A stretch of DNA of 64,000 nt from Escherichia coli (lineage in GTDB: Bacteria; Pseudomonadota; Gammaproteobacteria; Enterobacterales; Enterobacteriaceae): the NCBI RefSeq assembly GCF_024223415.1, contig NZ_CP100500.1; one strand, given 5' to 3'. Shown piece by piece: positions 5,493-45,949 of this stretch. A program made the position numbers and the translations under genes. Below the pieces are notes generated by a model that was given only the letters and a program-made list of their open reading frames with translations, did not search any database and had not been told where the DNA came from. Within the stretch, counting starts at the first letter, position 1; every line of letters starts with the position of its first letter.

Positions 5493-5580
5493 GGTGAGGT
5501 GTCCGAGTGGCTGAAGGAGCACGCCTGGAAAGTGTGTATACGGCAACGTATCGGGGGTTCGAATCCCCCCCTCACCGCCA
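5493..5580 (+). tRNA. serW: tRNA-Ser (anticodon GGA), long variable arm
   Basis: GGTGAGG...CCTCACC acceptor stem, anticodon loop CCTGGAAAG, GGTTCGAATCC T-arm, encoded CCA end; 88 nt; lies after infA as in the conserved core order. Confidence 0.95.
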
Positions 5581-5731: not shown

Positions 5732-6574
5732 CTATACTGCCAGCATGTCAGGATAGTGTCTGACGATAATATCATTCAGTCTGTCAACCAGTTCCGGTTT
5801 CCTGAACGTGATATGCGCGGAGCCTTTCCTGAAGTATCTGATGCTGAACATCTCATCCTCATAGCATGCTTCACCCTGAACGGACCGGATGTGCTCATCC
5901 AGACGAATGAGGATATTGTCCCGGTCAGTGGGTATGGGTTTACCGCTGAACAGATACAGTATCCTTTCCAGGTCGGCAAGCCGCCCGGCCTGCGGACCAT
6001 GGTTCAGACCAAATACCCACCAGTCCCATTTCACCAGGTTGTTGAGGATAATCTTACTGCCGAATTTACAGGGTGACCCGCTGTTGTGCGTCCGGCTCAG
6101 TCCTCTGAAGAGGTTGATGACGCCCCGTTCAGCCATTTCATCCCTGTTACGGTGCAGTTGTTCAGACGTACTCAGGATATTCGCTTCGCTGATTTCCGGA
6201 AAATTATCCTCCTCCAGTGAACGGTACCATTCATCACGCGCCTGTGCATCCATCAGACTCAGCATCCCGGAGCGTTGCATCAGGTCACGCCAGATTTCAC
6301 GGTCAAGGTTCCGGGTGATGGCTTTCATTGCGGTTTCCGGTTTTTCCATCAGCCAGCAGCCACAGCGAAAATCCTGTTTCACGGCCCAGTCCCGGGCCGT
6401 TTTACCTCCGATGCTTTCTGTCATTACTGAGATTTCTGCCAGTTGCCGGATAAGCCTTTCGGTTTGTTGCAGTGCTTCATTCCGTACCGTCACAACGTGC
6501 CGGATACTGGTTGAGCAGATAACGTCCGTATGTCCGTTAAGCGTTTCCGGACGGGAGACTGTGATATCAGACAT
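5732..6574 (-). CDS. hypothetical protein, island-borne (possibly a DUF4942-type protein that often follows cbtA/yeeW modules)
   Basis: 280-aa ORF, first gene after the serW terminator, same strand as the downstream end of the toxin-antitoxin module; family assignment is from memory only. Confidence 0.55.
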   Translation of the reverse strand: MSDITVSRPETLNGHTDVICSTSIRHVVTVRNEALQQTERLIRQLAEISVMTESIGGKTARDWAVKQDFRCGCWLMEKPETAMKAITRNLDREIWRDLMQRSGMLSLMDAQARDEWYRSLEEDNFPEISEANILSTSEQLHRNRDEMAERGVINLFRGLSRTHNSGSPCKFGSKIILNNLVKWDWWVFGLNHGPQAGRLADLERILYLFSGKPIPTDRDNILIRLDEHIRSVQGEACYEDEMFSIRYFRKGSAHITFRKPELVDRLNDIIVRHYPDMLAV

Positions 6575-6887
6575 AACCGATATTCCTTTTTGCAGATAAA
6601 TGAAAACGCCAGCCGTATTCGGACTGGCGTCAGTGGAATGAATCGTGGTGAGTGAGATGATGAGTGAGACTCACAGGTTCTGGTGCTGAAGCTGCAGCTG
6701 GCGCAGGGTGCGGATATCCTCCCTGGCCTGTTCGATACAGGGCAACAGTGCTGCCGAATCCGTTTTATCCTCATCGTTGTCGAAGATAATGCAGGAGCCG
6801 CAGTCGATATTGTCCTGCAGCCACGCAATCAGAATATCCGGTGCTGTTTCTGTGGTTAATGATTTCATACGGTGTCTTTTGTCCCGG

Positions 6888-7376
6888 TTACCAGTCGAAA
6901 GTGGGAAAACCCGGCAGACATTCAGCGCCGGCATCCAGATGAATGAGACTGACGCCATAACGCCGGATGAGAGTGACAACCAGACGACGAAACGTTTTTG
7001 ACAGACCCAGGCGTTTAAGCCGCAGAGCCGGGTACGACCACGCATCAGTACGTAACAGATATCCGCTGCCTGTAAAATGAATCCATTCTGATTCGCCGTT
7101 GTCATTCGTCTGATGCGACAGCGAGTACAGCCAGGCATTGTCCTGCTCCGTGATATGTGCGGTACTGCAGCGTATGCCGGTAAGGGCCGCAAATGGTGGC
7201 ATGCAGTCTGCTGAGGTCCGGTCAGATTCATCAGCAACACGAAGGGAACAGCCATTATCGCAGACCACGTTAATCAGTTCAGCGAGATTAACACCATCGA
7301 CGTCAGCGACAATGCGCCCCATGTTCAGTGCCTGTACGTTAACGCTGTCGGCTTCCAGTGTCAGGGACAGTTTCAT
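6888..7376 (-). CDS. YeeW-like protein (DUF5983-type) downstream of cbtA
   Basis: 162-aa ORF whose start overlaps the cbtA stop by 4 nt (ATGA coupling); position matches yeeW in CP4-44-type modules. Confidence 0.6.
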
Positions 7377-7750
7377 GGTTTCACCTCACAGTGTTTACCC
7401 AGGGTGATGTTGTTCACCATTCTGTAGTGGCTGCGGGTCATCAGGCCGGTCGCCCGGCGGGCCCGGAGAATATCAATGCTGCTGATTAACTGCGATGAAG
7501 CTCCTGCGCTGAATCCCGGCTGGTCGGTACGCACCAGCGCGTATTTTTCCACAAGAAAGTTCACCGCATCACACAGTGAAATACCCGCCTCAATATGCTG
7601 CTCAATCACACGTTCATCGGCGAACGGTGTGTCATTCAGCGTGAGGCCGTAGTGCTGGTCCAGCAGCCGGGTGAGCAGTGTCTGCCAGATTTCAACCGGA
7701 GACGGGCAGCGCGATGTTGCCCGTACGTGTGTGTCGGGGAATGTTTTCAT
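7373..7750 (-). CDS. cbtA: type IV toxin-antitoxin system toxin CbtA (YeeV/YkfI/YpjF family)
   Basis: Internal Met of the 7373..7876 ORF gives [80 protein letters not shown]..., closely matching CbtA. Confidence 0.85.
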
Positions 7751-7808
7751 CTTAAGTACTCTGTAACAGGTGATGATAAAGAAGTGCTGTCCGGGGTTAT
7801 GCGGTGGT

Positions 7809-8174
7809 TCAGGGTGTTGCCGGTGTCGGATAAATGGCGATATACACGTAACCACAACTGCCGAGGGTGTCGGCATCGCAGGTCAGCCCTTTCGCATACA
7901 GTGTCACGGTATGCTGATGGCGGGGACTGAGTTCACCGCTGGTGAGCATGAGTTCCAGCTGTTTCATCAGCAGCGGAAAGGCCTGGTCCAGGTGGTACGC
8001 ATCTGCGTCGCTGAACCGGCCTCTGATACCGGCGCGGTCTGCAAGGTAATGCAGGCGGTTACCCTCCTGCACCAGACGGGCACCAAAACAGGGTGTCACG
8101 GTGCAGGGCAGTCCCCACTAGGGGCGGTCGCTGTTGTCGTCAGGATGCGTTGTCCCGGTGAGTGTGTCTGACAT
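7809..8174 (-). pseudogene. cbeA: cbeA (yeeU-family antitoxin) interrupted by an in-frame amber stop at codon 19
   Basis: Minus-strand translation from ATG at 8174 reads MSDTLTGTTHPDDNSDRP-TAG-WGLPCTVTPCFGARLVQEGNRLHYLADRAGIRG...; the stop is the reverse complement of 8118-8120; the rest of the frame is intact (track ORF 7809..8099 from a GTG). Confidence 0.8.
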
Positions 8175-8224
8175 GATAAAGTCCTCACTGATAATCGGTT
8201 AAGAATGGTTTTAACAATGACGGG

Positions 8225-8869
8225 TCAGCCGGTGCGCAGACCGGCTTCGGTGAAGGTGTATCCGTTGATGAGAAGGGCCTCATCCACGGCGTCGTCTGAG
8301 GTCAGCCAGTCGTACTCGTTTTCCAGTTGACTGTATAACCAGAAGGCAAGGTCCCGCAGGGCGTCACAGACAACGGTTTCCGCGCTGGCTGTCATTGCCT
8401 GTCCGGTCGGACTGTCCCGGGTGACGGTGATATCCATGCTGTACGGATGGCAGTAGTGTCCCCGGTGGCGGATTTCAGCCTGAAGCTGCCGGAAGTTACG
8501 CTTCTGCACCGCCTGCAGGGCATCCGCGATACGATGAAGCTCACGGTCCTGCGGGGCATATTCCCTGATTTTCCGGGGTGCCGCTGGCTGCCAGCGCCAG
8601 CGTCCTTCAAAACAGGCTCCGTCCCCCTGGCTGCAGAATCCGCTGAACCAGATGCACGGCTCTTCCATAAACCTGCCGTTGCTGAGCCGGATAACACGCT
8701 GGCGGAGGGCAATCCCGACAATCTCACAGACCGTCCTGAAGTCCTCATACACGTTTTCATACCAGTTGCTGTCAGCATGATGCTGACGGTACCATTCACG
8801 GGCCTTCTCCCGTGCTGTGGCGGAAAGTTCATCCGGCGTATACACGGTGGTGATGATAATTCTGCTCAT
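8225..8869 (-). CDS. hypothetical protein inserted between the DUF987 gene and cbeA
   Basis: 214 aa from MSRIIITTVYTPDELS; GGAG Shine-Dalgarno 8 nt upstream; tightly packed between the yeeT-like stop (8886) and the cbeA start (8174); no family recognised. Confidence 0.6.
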   Translation of the reverse strand: MSRIIITTVYTPDELSATAREKAREWYRQHHADSNWYENVYEDFRTVCEIVGIALRQRVIRLSNGRFMEEPCIWFSGFCSQGDGACFEGRWRWQPAAPRKIREYAPQDRELHRIADALQAVQKRNFRQLQAEIRHRGHYCHPYSMDITVTRDSPTGQAMTASAETVVCDALRDLAFWLYSQLENEYDWLTSDDAVDEALLINGYTFTEAGLRTG

Positions 8870-8885
8870 CCGCATCTCCACTGAC

Positions 8886-9107
8886 TCAGTTCAGGGTGAC
8901 GCTCATCAGCCGGACATACGGGCCAAAACTGTCCTTCCGGCGTTCGGCAAACACGGCAAGCACACCGGGGATATCCTGCACTTCACGACCGGTATACGCT
9001 TCAGCACTGCCGTGCCAGCGGTATTTACCGGTACAGAACGGAAAAAGACGGGATGACGGATACTGACGGTGAACGCGCATGGCTTCACCACGGGTGATGA
9101 TTTTCAT
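8886..9107 (-). CDS. DUF987 family protein (YeeT/YpjJ-like)
   Basis: 73-aa ORF MKIITRGEAMRVHRQYPSSRLFPFCTGKYRWHGSAEAYTGREVQDIPGVLAVFAERRKDSFGPYVRLMSVTLN. Confidence 0.85.
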   Translation of the reverse strand: MKIITRGEAMRVHRQYPSSRLFPFCTGKYRWHGSAEAYTGREVQDIPGVLAVFAERRKDSFGPYVRLMSVTLN

Positions 9108-9196
9108 GAGAACAGTCCTCCTGAATGTGAAAGTGAGAAACAGCTGAGAAAGAGAAACTGAAGTGACAATATGAAGGTGGCTGTGACGGTGACGGA

Positions 9197-9673
9197 TTAA
9201 AGCAGACCGTGTTCCGCAAAGGAGAACACCCGGCTGCCACCGACTATCAGATGGTCCGGTACCCGGATATCCACCAGGGCCAGTGCCTGTACCAGACGTT
9301 CAGTGATAAGGCGGTCTGCCTTACCGGGTGTGACCTCACCGGACGGATGATTGTGCGCCAGCACCACGGCAGCGGCATTGTGGTACAGGGCGCGTTTAAC
9401 CACCTCCCGGGGATGCACTTCCGTGCGGTTGATGGTACCGGTGAAGAGGGTTTCACCGGCAATCAGCTGATTCTGGTTGTTCAGGTACAGCACCCGGAAC
9501 TCTTCCCGCTCCAGTCCCGCCATGTGCAGAATCAGCCATTCCCGTGCCGCATGCGTGGAGGTGAAGGCCACGCCGGGTTCATGAAGATGGCGGTCCAGGG
9601 TTTTCAGGGCCCGCTGAATGAGGCTGCGCTCGCCGGGCGTCATCGCGCCGGGCAGAAAGGAAATCTGTTGCAT
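9197..9673 (-). CDS. RadC-like JAB-domain protein (YeeS/YfjY family)
   Basis: MQQISFLPGAMTPGERSLIQRALKTLDRHLHEPGVAFTS...HNHPSGEVTPGKADRLITERL; JAMM-type HNHPSG motif. Confidence 0.85.
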   Translation of the reverse strand: MQQISFLPGAMTPGERSLIQRALKTLDRHLHEPGVAFTSTHAAREWLILHMAGLEREEFRVLYLNNQNQLIAGETLFTGTINRTEVHPREVVKRALYHNAAAVVLAHNHPSGEVTPGKADRLITERLVQALALVDIRVPDHLIVGGSRVFSFAEHGLL

Positions 9674-9684
9674 AACCTCACCCC

Positions 9685-10158
9685 TCAGTCGATGATGCGC
9701 ATAATGGCGCTGCATTCCGGATGCTGCAGGGCGTAATCCCGCAGCCGGTAATAATGGACCGTCATGGCATAATGCTCCGTACGGCAGGCGTGATGACTGT
9801 AGGCCATCAGGCAGGCGGCAATGCCGGCGGCTTCAGGGCTCATTTCCGCGCGGTTGCCGTTCATGGTGTTAAACAGTGCCCATGTTTCGTCATCATCGTC
9901 ACCCGGTTCGGGAGCCATAAATGCGCCGCCGTTGTTCAGGGTGTACATATTCCAGATACCCCCACTGTAGTCTTCACACAGACGGTCCATCCAGCCGAAG
10001 ATTCGGGGCTCAAGGGTCACCCACTGCGGAATGAGGCCAAAGTGCTGCGGCCAGAAGCTGATGCGCTGTTCGTCAGGCACTGGGCTGGCAACCAGCTGAG
10101 GTGGATTATTCCCGGATGCAGTGGTTGCGGAAACAGAGTCATGCGAAACCGTTTTCAT
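9685..10158 (-). CDS. antirestriction protein (KlcA/ArdB-like, YfjX family)
   Basis: 157-aa ORF with conserved PDEQRISFWPQHFGLIPQWVTLEPRIFGWMDRLCEDYSGGIWNMYTLNNGGAFMAPEP. Confidence 0.85.
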   Translation of the reverse strand: MKTVSHDSVSATTASGNNPPQLVASPVPDEQRISFWPQHFGLIPQWVTLEPRIFGWMDRLCEDYSGGIWNMYTLNNGGAFMAPEPGDDDDETWALFNTMNGNRAEMSPEAAGIAACLMAYSHHACRTEHYAMTVHYYRLRDYALQHPECSAIMRIID

Positions 10159-10160
10159 AA

Positions 10161-10226
10161 GTGAAATCCTTAAGTGAATAAGTGAACAAGTGAATTAAGG
10201 AAATAAGTGAATGAATAAGTGAATAA
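10161..10226. repeat. short tandem GTGAAYAA (TTCAC on the coding strand) repeat tract in the 5' leader of the antirestriction gene
   Basis: Six or seven copies of GTGAA(T/C)AA within 66 bp directly upstream of the start codon at 10158. Confidence 0.6.
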
Positions 10227-41733: not shown

Positions 41734-43269
41734 TTGATGGCTAAAAAGAAAATCTCCCGGAGTTCTATGGAAACCTGTTTAAAAATTCTCCAACTTAAGT
41801 TCGAGCAGCATCAGACAAACCGGACTATCGCACTTACACTGAACATCAGTCCCTCGACTGTTTCCGATGTATTGTCCCGCTTTAAGAACACGTCAATATC
41901 GTGGCCTTTGCCTGAATCGATGACAACTCAACGTCTTGAGGTGCTTATCTTTCCTGGCAAGCAAGCCCCGGAAATGACGCCGGCACTGCCTGACTGGCTC
42001 TACATTGATACCGAACTACGTCGTGTGGGAGTCACTCGTCAGCTCTTATGGATGGAATACAAACATCAGGCTGGTGAATATGCTCTGGGATACTCACAGT
42101 TCTGTCGTCGTTATCTGCACTGGAAAAAAAGCGTGCGTTACTCCATGCGGCAGGAACATCGTGCTGGTGAAAAACTCTTTATCGACTTCTGTGGTCCTAC
42201 AGTCCCTGTTGTTAATCCGGAAACCGGAGAAGAACGCAGAGTGGCCATCTTTGTAGCCGTGATGGGAGCATCTAACTATACCTATGTTGAAGCGTGCGAA
42301 GGTCAGGATCTGATGTCGTGGCTAAACGCCAACAGCCGATGTCTGACCTTCCTTGGTGGTGTACCAAAACTGCTGATCCCGGATAACCTTAAAAGTGCTG
42401 TCAAAAAAGTCGATCGCTACGAACCGGTCATCAATGAGAGTTACCAAGCATTCGCAGAGCACTACAATACAGTGATACTCCCAGCAAGACCAAGAAAACC
42501 AAAGGATAAAGCGAAAGCCGAAACGGCTGTACTTATCGTCGAACGATGGCTGCTTGCCCGCATTCGCAACGAGACCTTCTTTACACTCAGGAGCCTGAAC
42601 AGTCGTCTACGCGAGTTGTTGGTAGAGCTGAATAACCGTCCCATGAAAGGATACGGCAACCAGACGCGTGCAGAGCGTTTTGCCCTGCTGGATGCCCCTG
42701 CATTATCAGCCCTGCCAGTATCAGAGTATGAGTTCGCTGAATACAAAACGGTGAAAGTTGCACCTGATTACCATGTTGAATACGCCCACCACTGGTACTC
42801 AGTACCTCATGAACTGATCGGACAACGGTTATCCCTGAAAGCCACTCAGACAGTGATCCAACTCTGGCATCAGGGGCAATGCGTGGCACAACATCCGCGC
42901 AGCCTCCATGAGTACAAGCACACGACCAACCCTCTACACATGCCTGCAGCACATCAGGCACACAGCAGATGGACACCGGAAAGTCTTCAGGAAGCAGCCA
43001 GAAAGATAGATCCTTATACAGCAATGACAGTGGATAGCATGCTGAACAGTAAACGTCATCCTGAACAGGCTTACCGGACAGTCCTGGGGCTGCTGAGCCT
43101 GAAAAAACACTATGGTCGTGAGCGTCTGGAAAAAGCCTGTCATGTTGCCCGGGAGTGCAGAACGTCGGAAAGAAGGTTCATCGAAAACCTTCTGCGTAAT
43201 AACAGGGAAAACCTTTCCCTCCGGAAAAAGAGAGGCAGACGGAGGGAAACGTATCAAAAATCCAGTTAA
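41734..43269 (+). CDS. istA: IS21-family transposase IstA (orphan; no istB downstream)
   Basis: 511 aa with N-terminal helix-turn-helix and DDE integrase core; sequence typical of IstA. Confidence 0.85.
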   Translation: MMAKKKISRSSMETCLKILQLKFEQHQTNRTIALTLNISPSTVSDVLSRFKNTSISWPLPESMTTQRLEVLIFPGKQAPEMTPALPDWLYIDTELRRVGVTRQLLWMEYKHQAGEYALGYSQFCRRYLHWKKSVRYSMRQEHRAGEKLFIDFCGPTVPVVNPETGEERRVAIFVAVMGASNYTYVEACEGQDLMSWLNANSRCLTFLGGVPKLLIPDNLKSAVKKVDRYEPVINESYQAFAEHYNTVILPARPRKPKDKAKAETAVLIVERWLLARIRNETFFTLRSLNSRLRELLVELNNRPMKGYGNQTRAERFALLDAPALSALPVSEYEFAEYKTVKVAPDYHVEYAHHWYSVPHELIGQRLSLKATQTVIQLWHQGQCVAQHPRSLHEYKHTTNPLHMPAAHQAHSRWTPESLQEAARKIDPYTAMTVDSMLNSKRHPEQAYRTVLGLLSLKKHYGRERLEKACHVARECRTSERRFIENLLRNNRENLSLRKKRGRRRETYQKSS

Positions 43270-43395
43270 TACGCGTGATGACTGCCTGCATCACGTTTTC
43301 ACCCGTCATGATTTTCTTTTTCACGGCCTCTCCGTCATCTTCAGTTCACACCTTTGTATAAAAAACAGGGCGTGATACACATCACGCCCTGCGCT

Positions 43396-44391
43396 TCAGT
43401 GGCTGATTTTTTTCAGCTGTTCTTCACTCAGCCCCGTAATTTTCATGATTGTCTGGAAACCCATCCCTTCAGCCAGCATATTACGCGCGGTTTCCAGTTT
43501 GCCTTCCAGTTGTCCTTCGAGTCGACCTTCGGCACGGCCTTCCATTCTGCCTTCCATTCTGCCTTCCAGCTTACCACGCTCCATACCCTGCGCCATGCCC
43601 AGCGCAATGCCTTCCTCGCGTCCGCTCTGCTTCAGTTGTTCAGCCAGTGTCATTATGTTGCCCTCGTGCTGTGGCAGCCGCTCCGCCAGCGTCTGCAAAA
43701 ACCTTACCGTCACATGTTCACTGCCGTTCAGCAGATAGTGGAACAGAACCTGCGCCAGCTCTTCATTCAGCGAAGTCTGTATCAGCTGAACCAGCCTGTC
43801 CATCTGCAGCATGATGTCGCGGCTGCGGCTGTGTTTCATCAGCAGCGTCAGTGCCCCCATACGACGGTGCTGCATTATTTCATCGTCATCCAGTACCGTC
43901 ACGTCCACCAGGTGGAACGGTCTGGTGTAGATTTTAGCAGCAAGTTCCGGATTTCTGAAACACTCCAGCCAGTTCATGCTGTACGGGTACGGACTCCGCT
44001 CACCGTGGTAGAATAACAGCGGGATCACCAGCGGCAGCTCATGGTGCTGTTCAAAGTGACGCTGCATCGCCGCCACCGCATATCTGAGCATCCTGAACGC
44101 CATAAACGCGTTTTCCGTGCTCTGGTGTTCCGCGAGGCAATAAATATACCCCTCCTCACCGCTGACGGTCTTCATGCTGAACAGCGCATCGCACGCATAC
44201 TGTTTCAGATCCTGGTCCACAAAGGTACAGGGCTCCAGCCGCAGCGTTGACAGATCACACAGCTGCCGGTATTCCGCCGGAAGATGCAGTTCAACAAAAT
44301 CACGGGCCACCTCTGCGGAGGCCATAAACGCCCTGAAGGCAGCATCATGCGGCGTGGGGGTATTTTTCTCTTTCCTGCTGCTCACCGTCAT
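43396..44391 (-). CDS. Rpn-family recombination-promoting nuclease / putative transposase (YhgA-like)
   Basis: 331 aa; PD-(D/E)xK-like N-terminal region; C-terminal tandem GRMEG/GRAEG/GRLEG/GQLEG repeats. Confidence 0.75.
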   Translation of the reverse strand: MTVSSRKEKNTPTPHDAAFRAFMASAEVARDFVELHLPAEYRQLCDLSTLRLEPCTFVDQDLKQYACDALFSMKTVSGEEGYIYCLAEHQSTENAFMAFRMLRYAVAAMQRHFEQHHELPLVIPLLFYHGERSPYPYSMNWLECFRNPELAAKIYTRPFHLVDVTVLDDDEIMQHRRMGALTLLMKHSRSRDIMLQMDRLVQLIQTSLNEELAQVLFHYLLNGSEHVTVRFLQTLAERLPQHEGNIMTLAEQLKQSGREEGIALGMAQGMERGKLEGRMEGRMEGRAEGRLEGQLEGKLETARNMLAEGMGFQTIMKITGLSEEQLKKISH

Positions 44392-44506
44392 CCACTCAAC
44401 TGTCCGGTATCACTCTTTTTTGCAATCATACCAGCCGTAACCATTTCAGTCACCGGTGCAGCCTCCGCCTGAAACCTGTACCGGAGAGAATAACATCGCG
44501 AATGGC

Positions 44507-45061
44507 TTAGCGGATGATGCCGGCCATCACAGGCCAGGATAACGAAAGGCACGCGTTTCTGAATGCCCTGAGTGGCTCAGCGCCTTCAGGTGTGGCTGCA
44601 CGCACCACCCTGTAACAGCATACCACCGTACACTGCCCTTCTGGTGTGAGTGTGGTGCCGGCCTGTTGCAGTAACGCCACCAGGAGCGAATCAGCTGTTA
44701 GGCCGGATCCCGGTGGGCAAATGAGATCCTGGCTGATCAGCAACAGACAACGTATCCCGGTGCTGTCTGTCGTTTCCCGCAGCCAGCGTAACACCACCGG
44801 CAGTAACGGATATCCGGCATGGCTTCGCTGATTCAGCTGTCTGTAAAATGCCCGGTAAAACGCATGAATCTGCCCCCCGTCACGATTTCCTCCTGTTGAA
44901 TGAAGTGTGAACTGAACGGCCAGCAGACGCGGCCAGTGATCCACCGCCTGCTGAATAAAACGCCGGATTTCCACCGGCTCTGAAAGTACGGTTTCGGTTA
45001 TCTGCACGATTTGCTCTCTTTGAATGTTTCTGAACCGGTGTCGGTGCACAGGGAAACGCAT
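44507..45061 (-). CDS. YagK/YfjJ-family (inovirus Gp2-like) protein, divergent copy lacking the His-hydrophobic-His motif
   Basis: HWPRLLAVQFTLHSTG resembles the family N-terminal motif, but the HxH position reads IRCLLLISQD. Confidence 0.45.
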   Translation of the reverse strand: MRFPVHRHRFRNIQREQIVQITETVLSEPVEIRRFIQQAVDHWPRLLAVQFTLHSTGGNRDGGQIHAFYRAFYRQLNQRSHAGYPLLPVVLRWLRETTDSTGIRCLLLISQDLICPPGSGLTADSLLVALLQQAGTTLTPEGQCTVVCCYRVVRAATPEGAEPLRAFRNACLSLSWPVMAGIIR

Positions 45062-45125
45062 ACCCACACCACCACGCATACCCGGTCACAGCGTCACCGC
45101 CGTAAACTGCGACCGGGAACGCGCA

Positions 45126-45548
45126 TTACAGCAACGAATTGTCCGTCCCGGTATCTTCCATCAGGGGCTCCCGGCGTTCCCTGCTGTACAGCCCGCTTCC
45201 ACACCCCGGGCAGACCTTTTCTCCTTCATAGCTTTCATCACACATCACACAAAACCACCTTCTTACCTTCACCGCATAATCAGGCACCAGCATGCCCTGC
45301 AGATACACACGACGGGATTCTTTCTCTGCCGGGTCAAGCCAGGTACATCGCAGGAGAACTTTCTCAGAGACCGTCATCTGGTCATGTTCAAACCACGGTG
45401 GTTGTCCGTCCGTGCCCCGCTTAAGCGTTAACGGGCAACCACAGGACACACAGCACAAAACGTCCTGGCGGTTGTGCTCCGCAGCTTCTTTCGCGGTGAC
45501 AAAATGGCCCTTGCTGTCATTCGCCATATAGCAGTTCAGAATTCGCAT
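45126..45548 (-). CDS. zinc-ribbon protein, paralogue B
   Basis: CCVSCGCPLTLKRGTDGQPPWFEH and C-terminal CVMCDESYEGEKVCPGCG; start placed at MRILNCY. Confidence 0.5.
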   Translation of the reverse strand: MRILNCYMANDSKGHFVTAKEAAEHNRQDVLCCVSCGCPLTLKRGTDGQPPWFEHDQMTVSEKVLLRCTWLDPAEKESRRVYLQGMLVPDYAVKVRRWFCVMCDESYEGEKVCPGCGSGLYSRERREPLMEDTGTDNSLL

Positions 45549-45562
45549 ATCCCCCCCTGAGC

Positions 45563-45949
45563 TTAAGCTGTCCGGGAAATACTGAAGCGCCCGGTCCGGC
45601 AGTGTGTGCAGTACTGCTCCCCATAATAATCGTGGTGACATTGTCTGCAGTGCCGGCTGGCTTTACGCACCACGGGTAAGGCATCCGGTACAAACTGCCG
45701 TAAGCGTTTAATCAGTTGCACCTCCCTGCGCTCAGGCTGTACGTAAGGACACTGCTGACCGTGCTCCGTCAGCCCTTCGTCAGTGTGTTCAAACCAGGGG
45801 CGTTCAGTGTTGTATTGCGGGTGGTATCTGAGCGCACTGCCGCAAAGGTGGCAGGTGTAGCGGTCGTAAGGTGCAGTCTGTGCGGTACGGGCACCGGTCA
45901 GACGTCCGTTGCCATCAAACGCGAGAAAAGATTTTGCGTACATCGTCAT
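45563..45949 (-). CDS. zinc-ribbon protein, paralogue A
   Basis: CHLCGSALRYHPQYNTERPWFEH and C-terminal CRQCHHDYYGEQYCTHC. Confidence 0.5.
   Translation of the reverse strand: MTMYAKSFLAFDGNGRLTGARTAQTAPYDRYTCHLCGSALRYHPQYNTERPWFEHTDEGLTEHGQQCPYVQPERREVQLIKRLRQFVPDALPVVRKASRHCRQCHHDYYGEQYCTHCRTGRFSISRTA

Follow-up and report, generated by a model that had tools for sequence, protein, structure and literature searches.

The window, a stretch of Escherichia coli DNA of 64,000 nucleotides, carries on its minus strand a complete gene of the Rpn/YhgA family with a long tandem repeat in its C-terminal tail (Table 1). This accessory, island-borne member of the family likely works as an RpnL/RpnS gene-within-a-gene toxin-antitoxin system. 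In the systems of this kind described previously, RpnS counteracts full-length RpnL, blocking its toxicity, its induction of the SOS response, and its cleavage of DNA (Zhong et al. 2023, PNAS 120:e2307382120, PMC10400941). The characteristics of RpnL/RpnS genes that are seen here are an internal start with a ribosome-binding site, an RpnS fold in the modelled structure, a repeat of the expected position and composition, and a repeat number that differs between strains.

The four-residue repeat of Rpn proteins, the variation of its number among strains, and its role in toxin-antitoxin specificity were published in 2023 (PMC10400941). The feature in the window is already explained in the literature, and the gene is an unremarkable member of the family, with one of the longer tails. 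Its annotation should be corrected, as it probably has two products instead of one and does not encode a transposase.

Table 1. Features of the rpn gene and its flanking signals (positions are those of the window)
Feature	Position	Strand	Basis
rpn gene for RpnL of 331 aa (coordinates include the stop codon)	43396..44391	minus	ORF list; PF04754 and TIGR01784 above cut-offs
Transposase_31 / PD-(D/E)XK nuclease domain, residues 13-209	43765..44355	minus	Pfam envelope
Predicted intragenic rpnS frame, 85 aa (RpnL residues 247-331, same frame, plus stop)	43396..43653	minus	M247 aligned with RpnA M244
GAGGG resembling a Shine-Dalgarno sequence, 7-8 nt before the internal ATG	43661..43665	minus	read from sequence
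11 xGxx tetrapeptide (dodecamer) units, residues 256-299	43495..43626	minus	unit table, shuffle test, Tandem Repeats Finder period 12
Well-conserved core of the array, last six units (EGRM EGRM EGRA EGRL EGQL EGKL)	43495..43566	minus	unit table
C-terminal helical, HTH-like end of RpnL/RpnS, residues 300-331	43399..43494	minus	phmmer, Foldseek, sub-threshold HTH_7, AF2
Sigma-70-like promoter match GTGACT-17-TATGAT with TG, upstream of the full-length start	44425..44453	minus	consensus match only
Two internal sigma-70-like matches (43959-43931, 43902-43874), ahead of the rpnS ATG	43874..43959	minus	consensus match only
Hairpin and T-run resembling an intrinsic terminator, directly past the stop codon (stem of 12 bp with 7 G-C pairs)	43365..43392	minus	

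Identity of the gene

The open reading frame of 331 residues runs from ATG to stop with its frame intact. The protein matches PF04754 (Transposase_31, YhgA-like) over residues 13-209 with 248.4 bits (cut-off 21, E = 6.5e-74), and TIGR01784 (Rpn family recombination-promoting nuclease/putative transposase) with 173.7 bits (cut-off 52.1). The names Rpn and YhgA-like are used here for the family of Pfam PF04754 Transposase_31, TIGR01784, and COG5464. The alignment with RpnA, RpnB, RpnC, and RpnE of K-12 extends from end to end, with sequence identities of 48, 48, 43, and 47%, respectively. Apart from the annotated start, WP_110844341.1 of E. coli AR_0085 is 100% identical to the window protein; RefSeq labels this copy an Rpn family nuclease and places its start at a GTG (44385), two codons downstream.

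The preliminary description of this DNA had assigned the gene to the Rpn family and proposed a comparison with the rpnA-E paralogues. The two family models, the full-length alignment to RpnA, RpnB, RpnC, and RpnE, and the label of the identical protein all agree with that assignment. Judged from its sequence, this is a real, intact gene for an Rpn/YhgA-family PD-(D/E)XK nuclease.

Orthology to a K-12 gene was considered and rejected. For RpnA and RpnC, the RpnA equivalog model scores 297 bits and PRK09956 scores 301 bits, both against a cut-off of 583. For the K-12 paralogues (RpnA-E) as a set, the identities stay at 43-48%, and the locus is unrelated to the K-12 rpn loci. The gene is a separate paralogue, distinct from rpnA-E. 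Additional paralogues of E. coli have been named by Zhong et al., with RpnF-H being chromosomal and RpnP1/P2 plasmid-borne (PMC10400941). Like these, the window gene is an accessory E. coli Rpn gene outside the K-12 set, and it is probably one of RpnF-H. No second rpn gene and no stand-alone rpnS was found elsewhere in the window.

The nuclease domain

Mutation of residues D11, D63, E82, Q84, and R94 inactivates or alters the RpnA enzyme (Kingston et al. 2017, PMC5350276). In the alignment, these residues map to D16, D68, E88, Q90, and R100 of the window protein, and all five are conserved. Across 114 homologues, four of the five (D68, E88, Q90, and R100) never vary, and D16 is conserved in at least 90%. 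The conserved PDDEI motif of the family, which belongs to the part of the domain outside the nuclease core, reads DDDEI here (residues 168-172), with Asp169, Asp170, and Glu171 kept and the proline replaced, as is also the case in the closest relatives.

A Foldseek search of the Protein Data Bank with the whole AF2 model finds weak matches for the N-terminal domain (E of 0.0076 or worse), to PD-(D/E)XK nucleases such as Nt.BspD6I, Card1, and Cap4. The sole convincing match of the model is that of its tail to entry 7TH0 (see below).

The C-terminal repeat array

Read in register, the units of the array are SGRE EGIA LGMA QGME RGKL EGRM EGRM EGRA EGRL EGQL EGKL, each with a glycine at its second position. 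The last six share the consensus EG(R/Q/K)(M/A/L). Tandem Repeats Finder reports a repeat at 43492-43569 with a period of 12 nt and 6.5 copies, and a weaker 12-nt periodicity at 43581-43611, just upstream in the gene. When the tail (85 residues) was shuffled 100,000 times, no glycine run of period 4 reached 11 units, and the longest had 8.

The preliminary description had noted five or six tandem GRxEG-type pentapeptides at the C-terminus. A tandem repeat is present there, and the count of five or six corresponds to the last six units, but the unit has four residues (12 nt) and the array comprises 11 units. The pentapeptide unit was rejected because the period is 12 nt, every fourth residue is a glycine, and each pentapeptide shares its terminal glycine with the next unit.

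Units 6 and 7 (both EGRM, 43543-43566) are identical dodecamers, GAAGGCAGAATG. The remaining units keep the peptide pattern and differ at synonymous positions. At the nucleotide level, the array is thus a mixture of old and recent duplications. The preservation of xGxx in spite of the synonymous divergence of the older units indicates selection on the protein.

The published Rpn repeats have four residues, a hydrophobic one together with charged residues or glycine, and start 8-20 residues past the initiating Met of RpnS (PMC10400941). The array begins at residue 10 of the predicted RpnS, within this range.

No Pfam family, DUF4351 (PF14261) included, matches the tail above threshold, and a sub-threshold match to HTH_7 is the only signal. 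Among precomputed database labels, the tail carries PF27070. An NCBIfam match to FliH (E = 3e-8, 33 bits against a cut-off of 192) and a match to Yae1_N far below its cut-off were both rejected and are attributed to the shared GxxxG periodicity. The GxxxG helices of FliH/YscL and the deca-GX3 motif of Yae1/Lto1 resemble the tail described here in that glycine recurs with a period of four residues in a long helix. However, their scores are under the family cut-offs and there is no homology; the periodicity alone is in common. In both of those cases, the glycine-repeat helices serve protein-protein association.

The internal start and the predicted structure of RpnS

The internal start codon (ATG, 43653..43651, Met247) aligns with Met244 of RpnA, which is an experimentally proven internal start (PMC10400941). 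Met247 is found in at least 90% of the 114 aligned homologues. The sequence GAGG is present at the same spacing upstream in seven of the seven alleles compared, and the equivalent site of K-12 rpnA, rpnB, and rpnE has AAGGAG.

The AF2 model, built with 114 sequences, has a mean pLDDT of 79, with values of 74-83 in the region of the tail helices. A single uninterrupted helix (residues 240-307) takes in the start codon and the whole array, and is followed by two short helices (residues 312-319 and 323-327). The C-terminus matches the RpnA-S structure (PDB entry 7TH0) in Foldseek with a probability of 1.00, a TMt of 0.79, and an rmsd of 0.6 Å over 38 columns. The same entry is found by phmmer from sequence, at E = 0.028 for residues 290-329. 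The crystal structure of RpnA-S is a dimer of three-helix bundles, paired via the long first helix (PMC10400941). The modelled tail is a long helix with a small C-terminal helical domain, an RpnS-like fold as in 7TH0.

Three sigma-70-like matches are present in the region, compared to 0.8 expected from shuffles. The two that lie inside the gene are candidates for an internal rpnS promoter. Internal transcription start sites have been reported in all K-12 rpn genes (PMC10400941).

Variation in repeat number

Alleles with at least 94% nucleotide identity were collected from complete E. coli genomes. The allele of 23CRST013 has 7 units and no copy of GAAGGCAGAATG; those of the window, AR_0085, and GF60 have 11 units and 2 copies; and that of Br_112_kylling has 15 units and 6 copies. 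A more distant allele, that of M70, contains CAGGGAATGGCG (QGMA) three times instead. All the length changes seen are multiples of 12 nt. Gain or loss of GAAGGCAGAATG explains the 7-, 11-, and 15-unit alleles, presumably by way of slippage. Within one allele lineage, they offer a clean case of natural change in the number of dodecamers (0, 2, or 6). The Br_112 allele also has a frameshift at its last codons, from A7 to A6.

The same register is observed across the family. Among 112 homologues with a recognisable internal Met, the tail has a length of 49+4n residues in 107 (49, 53, 57, 61, 65, 69, 73, 77, 81, or 85 aa). The window tail is near the upper end of this distribution, as four of the 112 have 85 residues and one is longer. 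The tails of K-12 RpnA and RpnB have 49 and 53 residues, and those in an 84%-identity cluster have 69, 73, or 77. That repeat number varies between Rpn paralogues, as the preliminary description had stated, is borne out by this survey, and the number also varies between alleles of the window gene itself.

Among 40 members of the 90%-identity protein cluster, no variation in repeat number was found, and all complete tails have 11 units. Copy-number change is therefore not very fast, and the array is not hypermutable in this lineage. The first three units come in two versions in this cluster. One member, of 309 residues, differs in its N-terminal start and has the same repeat.

RpnA (YhgA; 7TH0) resembles the window gene in domain order, in the catalytic D/D/E/Q/R residues, and in the aligned internal Met with an upstream Shine-Dalgarno sequence, and the C-terminal helical domain of RpnA-S can be superposed on the modelled tail. 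On the other hand, the two proteins share 48% identity, and rpnA is located at the feoC-bioH core locus whereas the window gene is on a mobile island. RpnA-S, with 49 residues, belongs to the shortest tail class in the survey, and the predicted RpnS of the window is 36 residues longer, which corresponds to nine four-residue units. The Shine-Dalgarno sequences differ as well (GAGG in the window, AAGGAG in rpnA). RpnC (YadD) also has four-residue repeats in the first helix of RpnS, with the same position and type of composition. However, its identity to the window protein is 43%, its units are KGIE/KGIQ instead of EGRM/EGRL, and K-12 RpnC has about 2-3 units compared to 11.

Genomic neighbourhood

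To the left of the gene is an IS21-family istA (41734-43269), with rve and Mu-transposase-C domains and about 75% identity to ISSso4. The homology to ISSso4 ends near 43196, and istB is absent. Between the insertion sequence and the terminator-like hairpin of rpn, the minus strand carries a short piece of a PP-loop-type gene, from 43324 down to about 43213, which encodes part of the N-terminus (...SFSGGK). To the right are a gene for a 190-residue protein without a Pfam family, two overlapping DUF7828/zinc-ribbon paralogues, and a YagK/YfjJ ('inovirus Gp2') gene. The preliminary description had placed the gene between an IS21 remnant and a YagK/zinc-ribbon cluster, in agreement with this arrangement.

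Many E. coli chromosomes have the right-hand module beside an rpn gene, with identities of about 85%. The left flank varies with the strain and consists of RelE and IS66 fragments, sit or sucrose genes, Dr adhesin genes, or a TOTE conflict-system gene. Neighbours of the orthologues include the TOTE conflict-system gene in M70, a UvrD-helicase pseudogene in GF60, and RelE fragments in other strains. The position of the rpn gene is interpreted as the variable margin of a CP4-like integrative island. The suggestion that the site is a recombination hotspot is reasonable, since the left flank differs among strains and the right-hand module recurs, as would fit a recombination-prone island edge.

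Proposed mechanism and alternative explanations

In the proposed mechanism, which follows the published RpnL/RpnS systems, RpnL (331 aa) would be a PD-(D/E)XK DNA endonuclease that is toxic when unopposed. RpnS (85 aa) would be translated in the same frame from the ATG at 43653, probably off its own internal promoter, and would consist of a long helix and a small helical, HTH-like C-terminal end, a segment that is also contained within RpnL. Pairing of RpnS with the matching helix in RpnL, in an L2S2 complex, would keep the nuclease inactive. The synthesis of RpnS and the neutralisation of RpnL by it are inferred by homology from the published work on RpnA, RpnB, RpnC, and RpnP2. The 11 xGxx units would lie in the long first helix, with about one helical turn per unit, and the length of this helix would key the cognate pairing. 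In RpnC, one extra repeat in just one partner abolishes neutralisation (PMC10400941). As both products would be read from the same DNA, gain or loss of a dodecamer would alter the toxin and the antitoxin together. The two partners would thereby stay matched to each other and be kept apart from other Rpn paralogues, and perhaps also from factors encoded by phages. The 85-residue predicted RpnS, near the top of the tail-length distribution, could help test the relation between helix length and pairing specificity.

A stronger proposal is that GAAGGCAGAATG is a currently active specificity dial in this allele lineage, with repeat number alone re-keying the pairing across the natural series of 7, 11, and 15 units. 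We regard this as doubtful. Such changes might be driven by phage counter-defence, or might even be the work of the Rpn nuclease itself, as Zhong et al. have speculated (PMC10400941).

It is improbable that the gene has a single product, a recombination-promoting nuclease or 'transposase' that aids horizontal transfer, with the variable tail as a DNA-recognition or spacing module. In this reading, the tail would have a parallel in the TAEL repeats of EcoR124I/II, where repeat number alters the length of the target spacer. The location at a variable island edge next to IS fragments and the sub-threshold similarity of the tail to the resolvase HTH_7 domain would be consistent with such a role. 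The possibility that a variable tail might determine the DNA sequence preference was raised by Kingston et al. (2017, PMC5350276), who also found that RpnA-D raise RecA-independent recombination, but cleavage by RpnA has little or no sequence specificity (PMC5350276). Moreover, inverted repeats, target-site duplications, and evidence for autonomous transposition were all absent in the study of Zhong et al., who showed that cells also produce the tail on its own, as an inhibitor of the nuclease (PMC10400941). The conservation of the internal ATG and its Shine-Dalgarno sequence in the window gene likewise argues against a single product. The two roles do not completely exclude each other.

That the repeat arose neutrally, by slippage in an accessory gene that is decaying or inactive, is highly improbable. 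Two identical dodecamers are a classic substrate for slippage, gene fragments abound in the neighbourhood, the K-12 annotations describe RpnE as 'inactive' and rpnD as a pseudogene, and the Br_112 allele carries its A7-to-A6 frameshift at the last codons. However, the frame of 331 codons is intact and all the catalytic residues are present in the window gene. Length changes only by multiples of 12 nt, a 49+4n register in 107 of 112 tails, and older units that keep xGxx despite their synonymous divergence also speak against this reading, and a change of one repeat has a measured phenotype in RpnC (PMC10400941). The toxin-antitoxin system is the explanation that we favour.

Distribution and a possible role in phage defence

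Plasmid-borne RpnP2 protects against T-even phages and is the sole Rpn paralogue shown to do so (PMC10400941). By analogy, the window system may also act in phage defence, by aborting or limiting infection, a possibility to which we give somewhat less than an even chance. Searches with the PADLOC 2023 models gave no significant match for the window protein or for five of its neighbours; the only signal is a weak one, to 'putative invertase' (E = 4.5e-4). Relatives are rare in phage records (17 of 50,697), and none of those records carries a relative with more than 60% identity.

The allele itself is rare: in a set of 5,426 complete E. coli genomes, only six have a match to 80% or more of a 1.2-kb query. 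About 90 records have partial matches to this query at 90% identity or above. Related genes are common on enterobacterial plasmids (4,813 records, mostly with less than 80% identity), and the plasmid Rpn proteins reach 64-81% identity to the window protein.

Genes flanking rpn

The rpn gene, encoding an Rpn-family nuclease, is followed directly by a terminator-like hairpin and then by a short ORF, on the same strand, with the N-terminal sequence MKKKIMTGENVMQAVITRINWIFDTFPSVCLSFSGGK. To judge from this sequence, the ORF resembles the N-terminal part of a gene for a PP-loop (SGGK) ATPase or for a PAPS-reductase-like protein. A Pfam search with the 48-aa fragment gave no match. The ORF is truncated at the point where the IS21-family homology ends, with the junction near 43196-43215. 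On the other side of this junction, the similarity of the istA ORF to other copies ends near 43196, and no istB follows it. The final ~25 codons of the istA ORF are therefore probably read-through into foreign DNA.

Immediately upstream of rpn is the gene for a 190-aa protein, for which no family was found in Pfam or PADLOC. In other strains, the gene in the same slot beside rpn, matched by position alone, is annotated as 'hypothetical' or 'UCP030791 family putative phage-derived protein'. The next two genes are adjacent paralogs with DUF7828 and Zn_ribbon_11, and their ORFs overlap by ~79 nt as listed. This pair is found again beside rpn and YagK (a YagK/YfjJ-type gene) in many E. coli islands.

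Features of the window and of rpn loci in other E. coli strains
Feature	Location	Strand	Remarks
tRNA-Ser(GGA) gene	window 5493-5580	+
CP4-type island block	window 5732-18978		after tRNA-Ser(GGA)
CbtA toxin	window 7373-7876		within CP4-type block
Ag43-like autotransporter	window 12160-15279		within CP4-type block
IS66 transposase	window 15319-16857		within CP4-type block
IS102 RNA (RF00124)	window 17751-17947	-	Rfam, 88 bits (gathering score 46)
YeeP-like GTPase	window 18067-18978		within CP4-type block
IS21-family istA	window 41734-43269	+	511-aa ORF, ~75% identity to ISSso4
Short ORF	window 43178-43324	-	truncated
190-aa protein gene	window 44507-45079	-
DUF7828/Zn_ribbon_11 genes	window 45126-45641, 45563-45949	-	paralogous
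15-unit rpn allele, Br_112_kylling	L010 3007-4065	-
rpn locus with UvrD-helicase-domain gene, GF60	L008 6209-9116		UvrD-helicase-domain gene frameshifted
rpn locus with TOTE conflict-system primase-domain gene, M70	L011 4487-6853

The CP4-type block also includes DUF4942, RadC, an antirestriction protein and DUF932. The rpn/YagK module (43-47 kb) may be the opposite end of one composite island with this block, or it may belong to a second island.

Start codon and tail of Rpn

The start codon of rpn is ambiguous (44385-44391, minus strand). A purine-rich GAGTGG directly abuts the ATG at 44391, whereas the GTG at 44385, two codons 3′ of this ATG, has a 6-nt spacing to it. For the identical rpn of strain AR_0085, the RefSeq start is the GTG corresponding to 44385.

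Two profiles matched residues 235-316 of Rpn (about 43444-43689) below threshold, those of the flagellar protein FliH (E=3e-8) and of Yae1_N. In each of these families an association helix has glycine at every fourth residue. The likeness is one of periodicity only and does not reflect homology.

rpn in other strains

The rpn orthologs of GF60 and M70 adjoin the UvrD-helicase-domain and TOTE primase-domain genes, respectively. Both neighbors agree with the report that rpn genes tend to be located among defence genes. In the Br_112_kylling allele, with 15 of the four-residue repeat units, the homopolymer that immediately precedes the final codons is changed from A7 to A6, which converts ...KKISH to ...KKSATEALRRDV and lengthens the ORF. 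This change may be a genuine frameshift, or it may stem from an error in the assembly.
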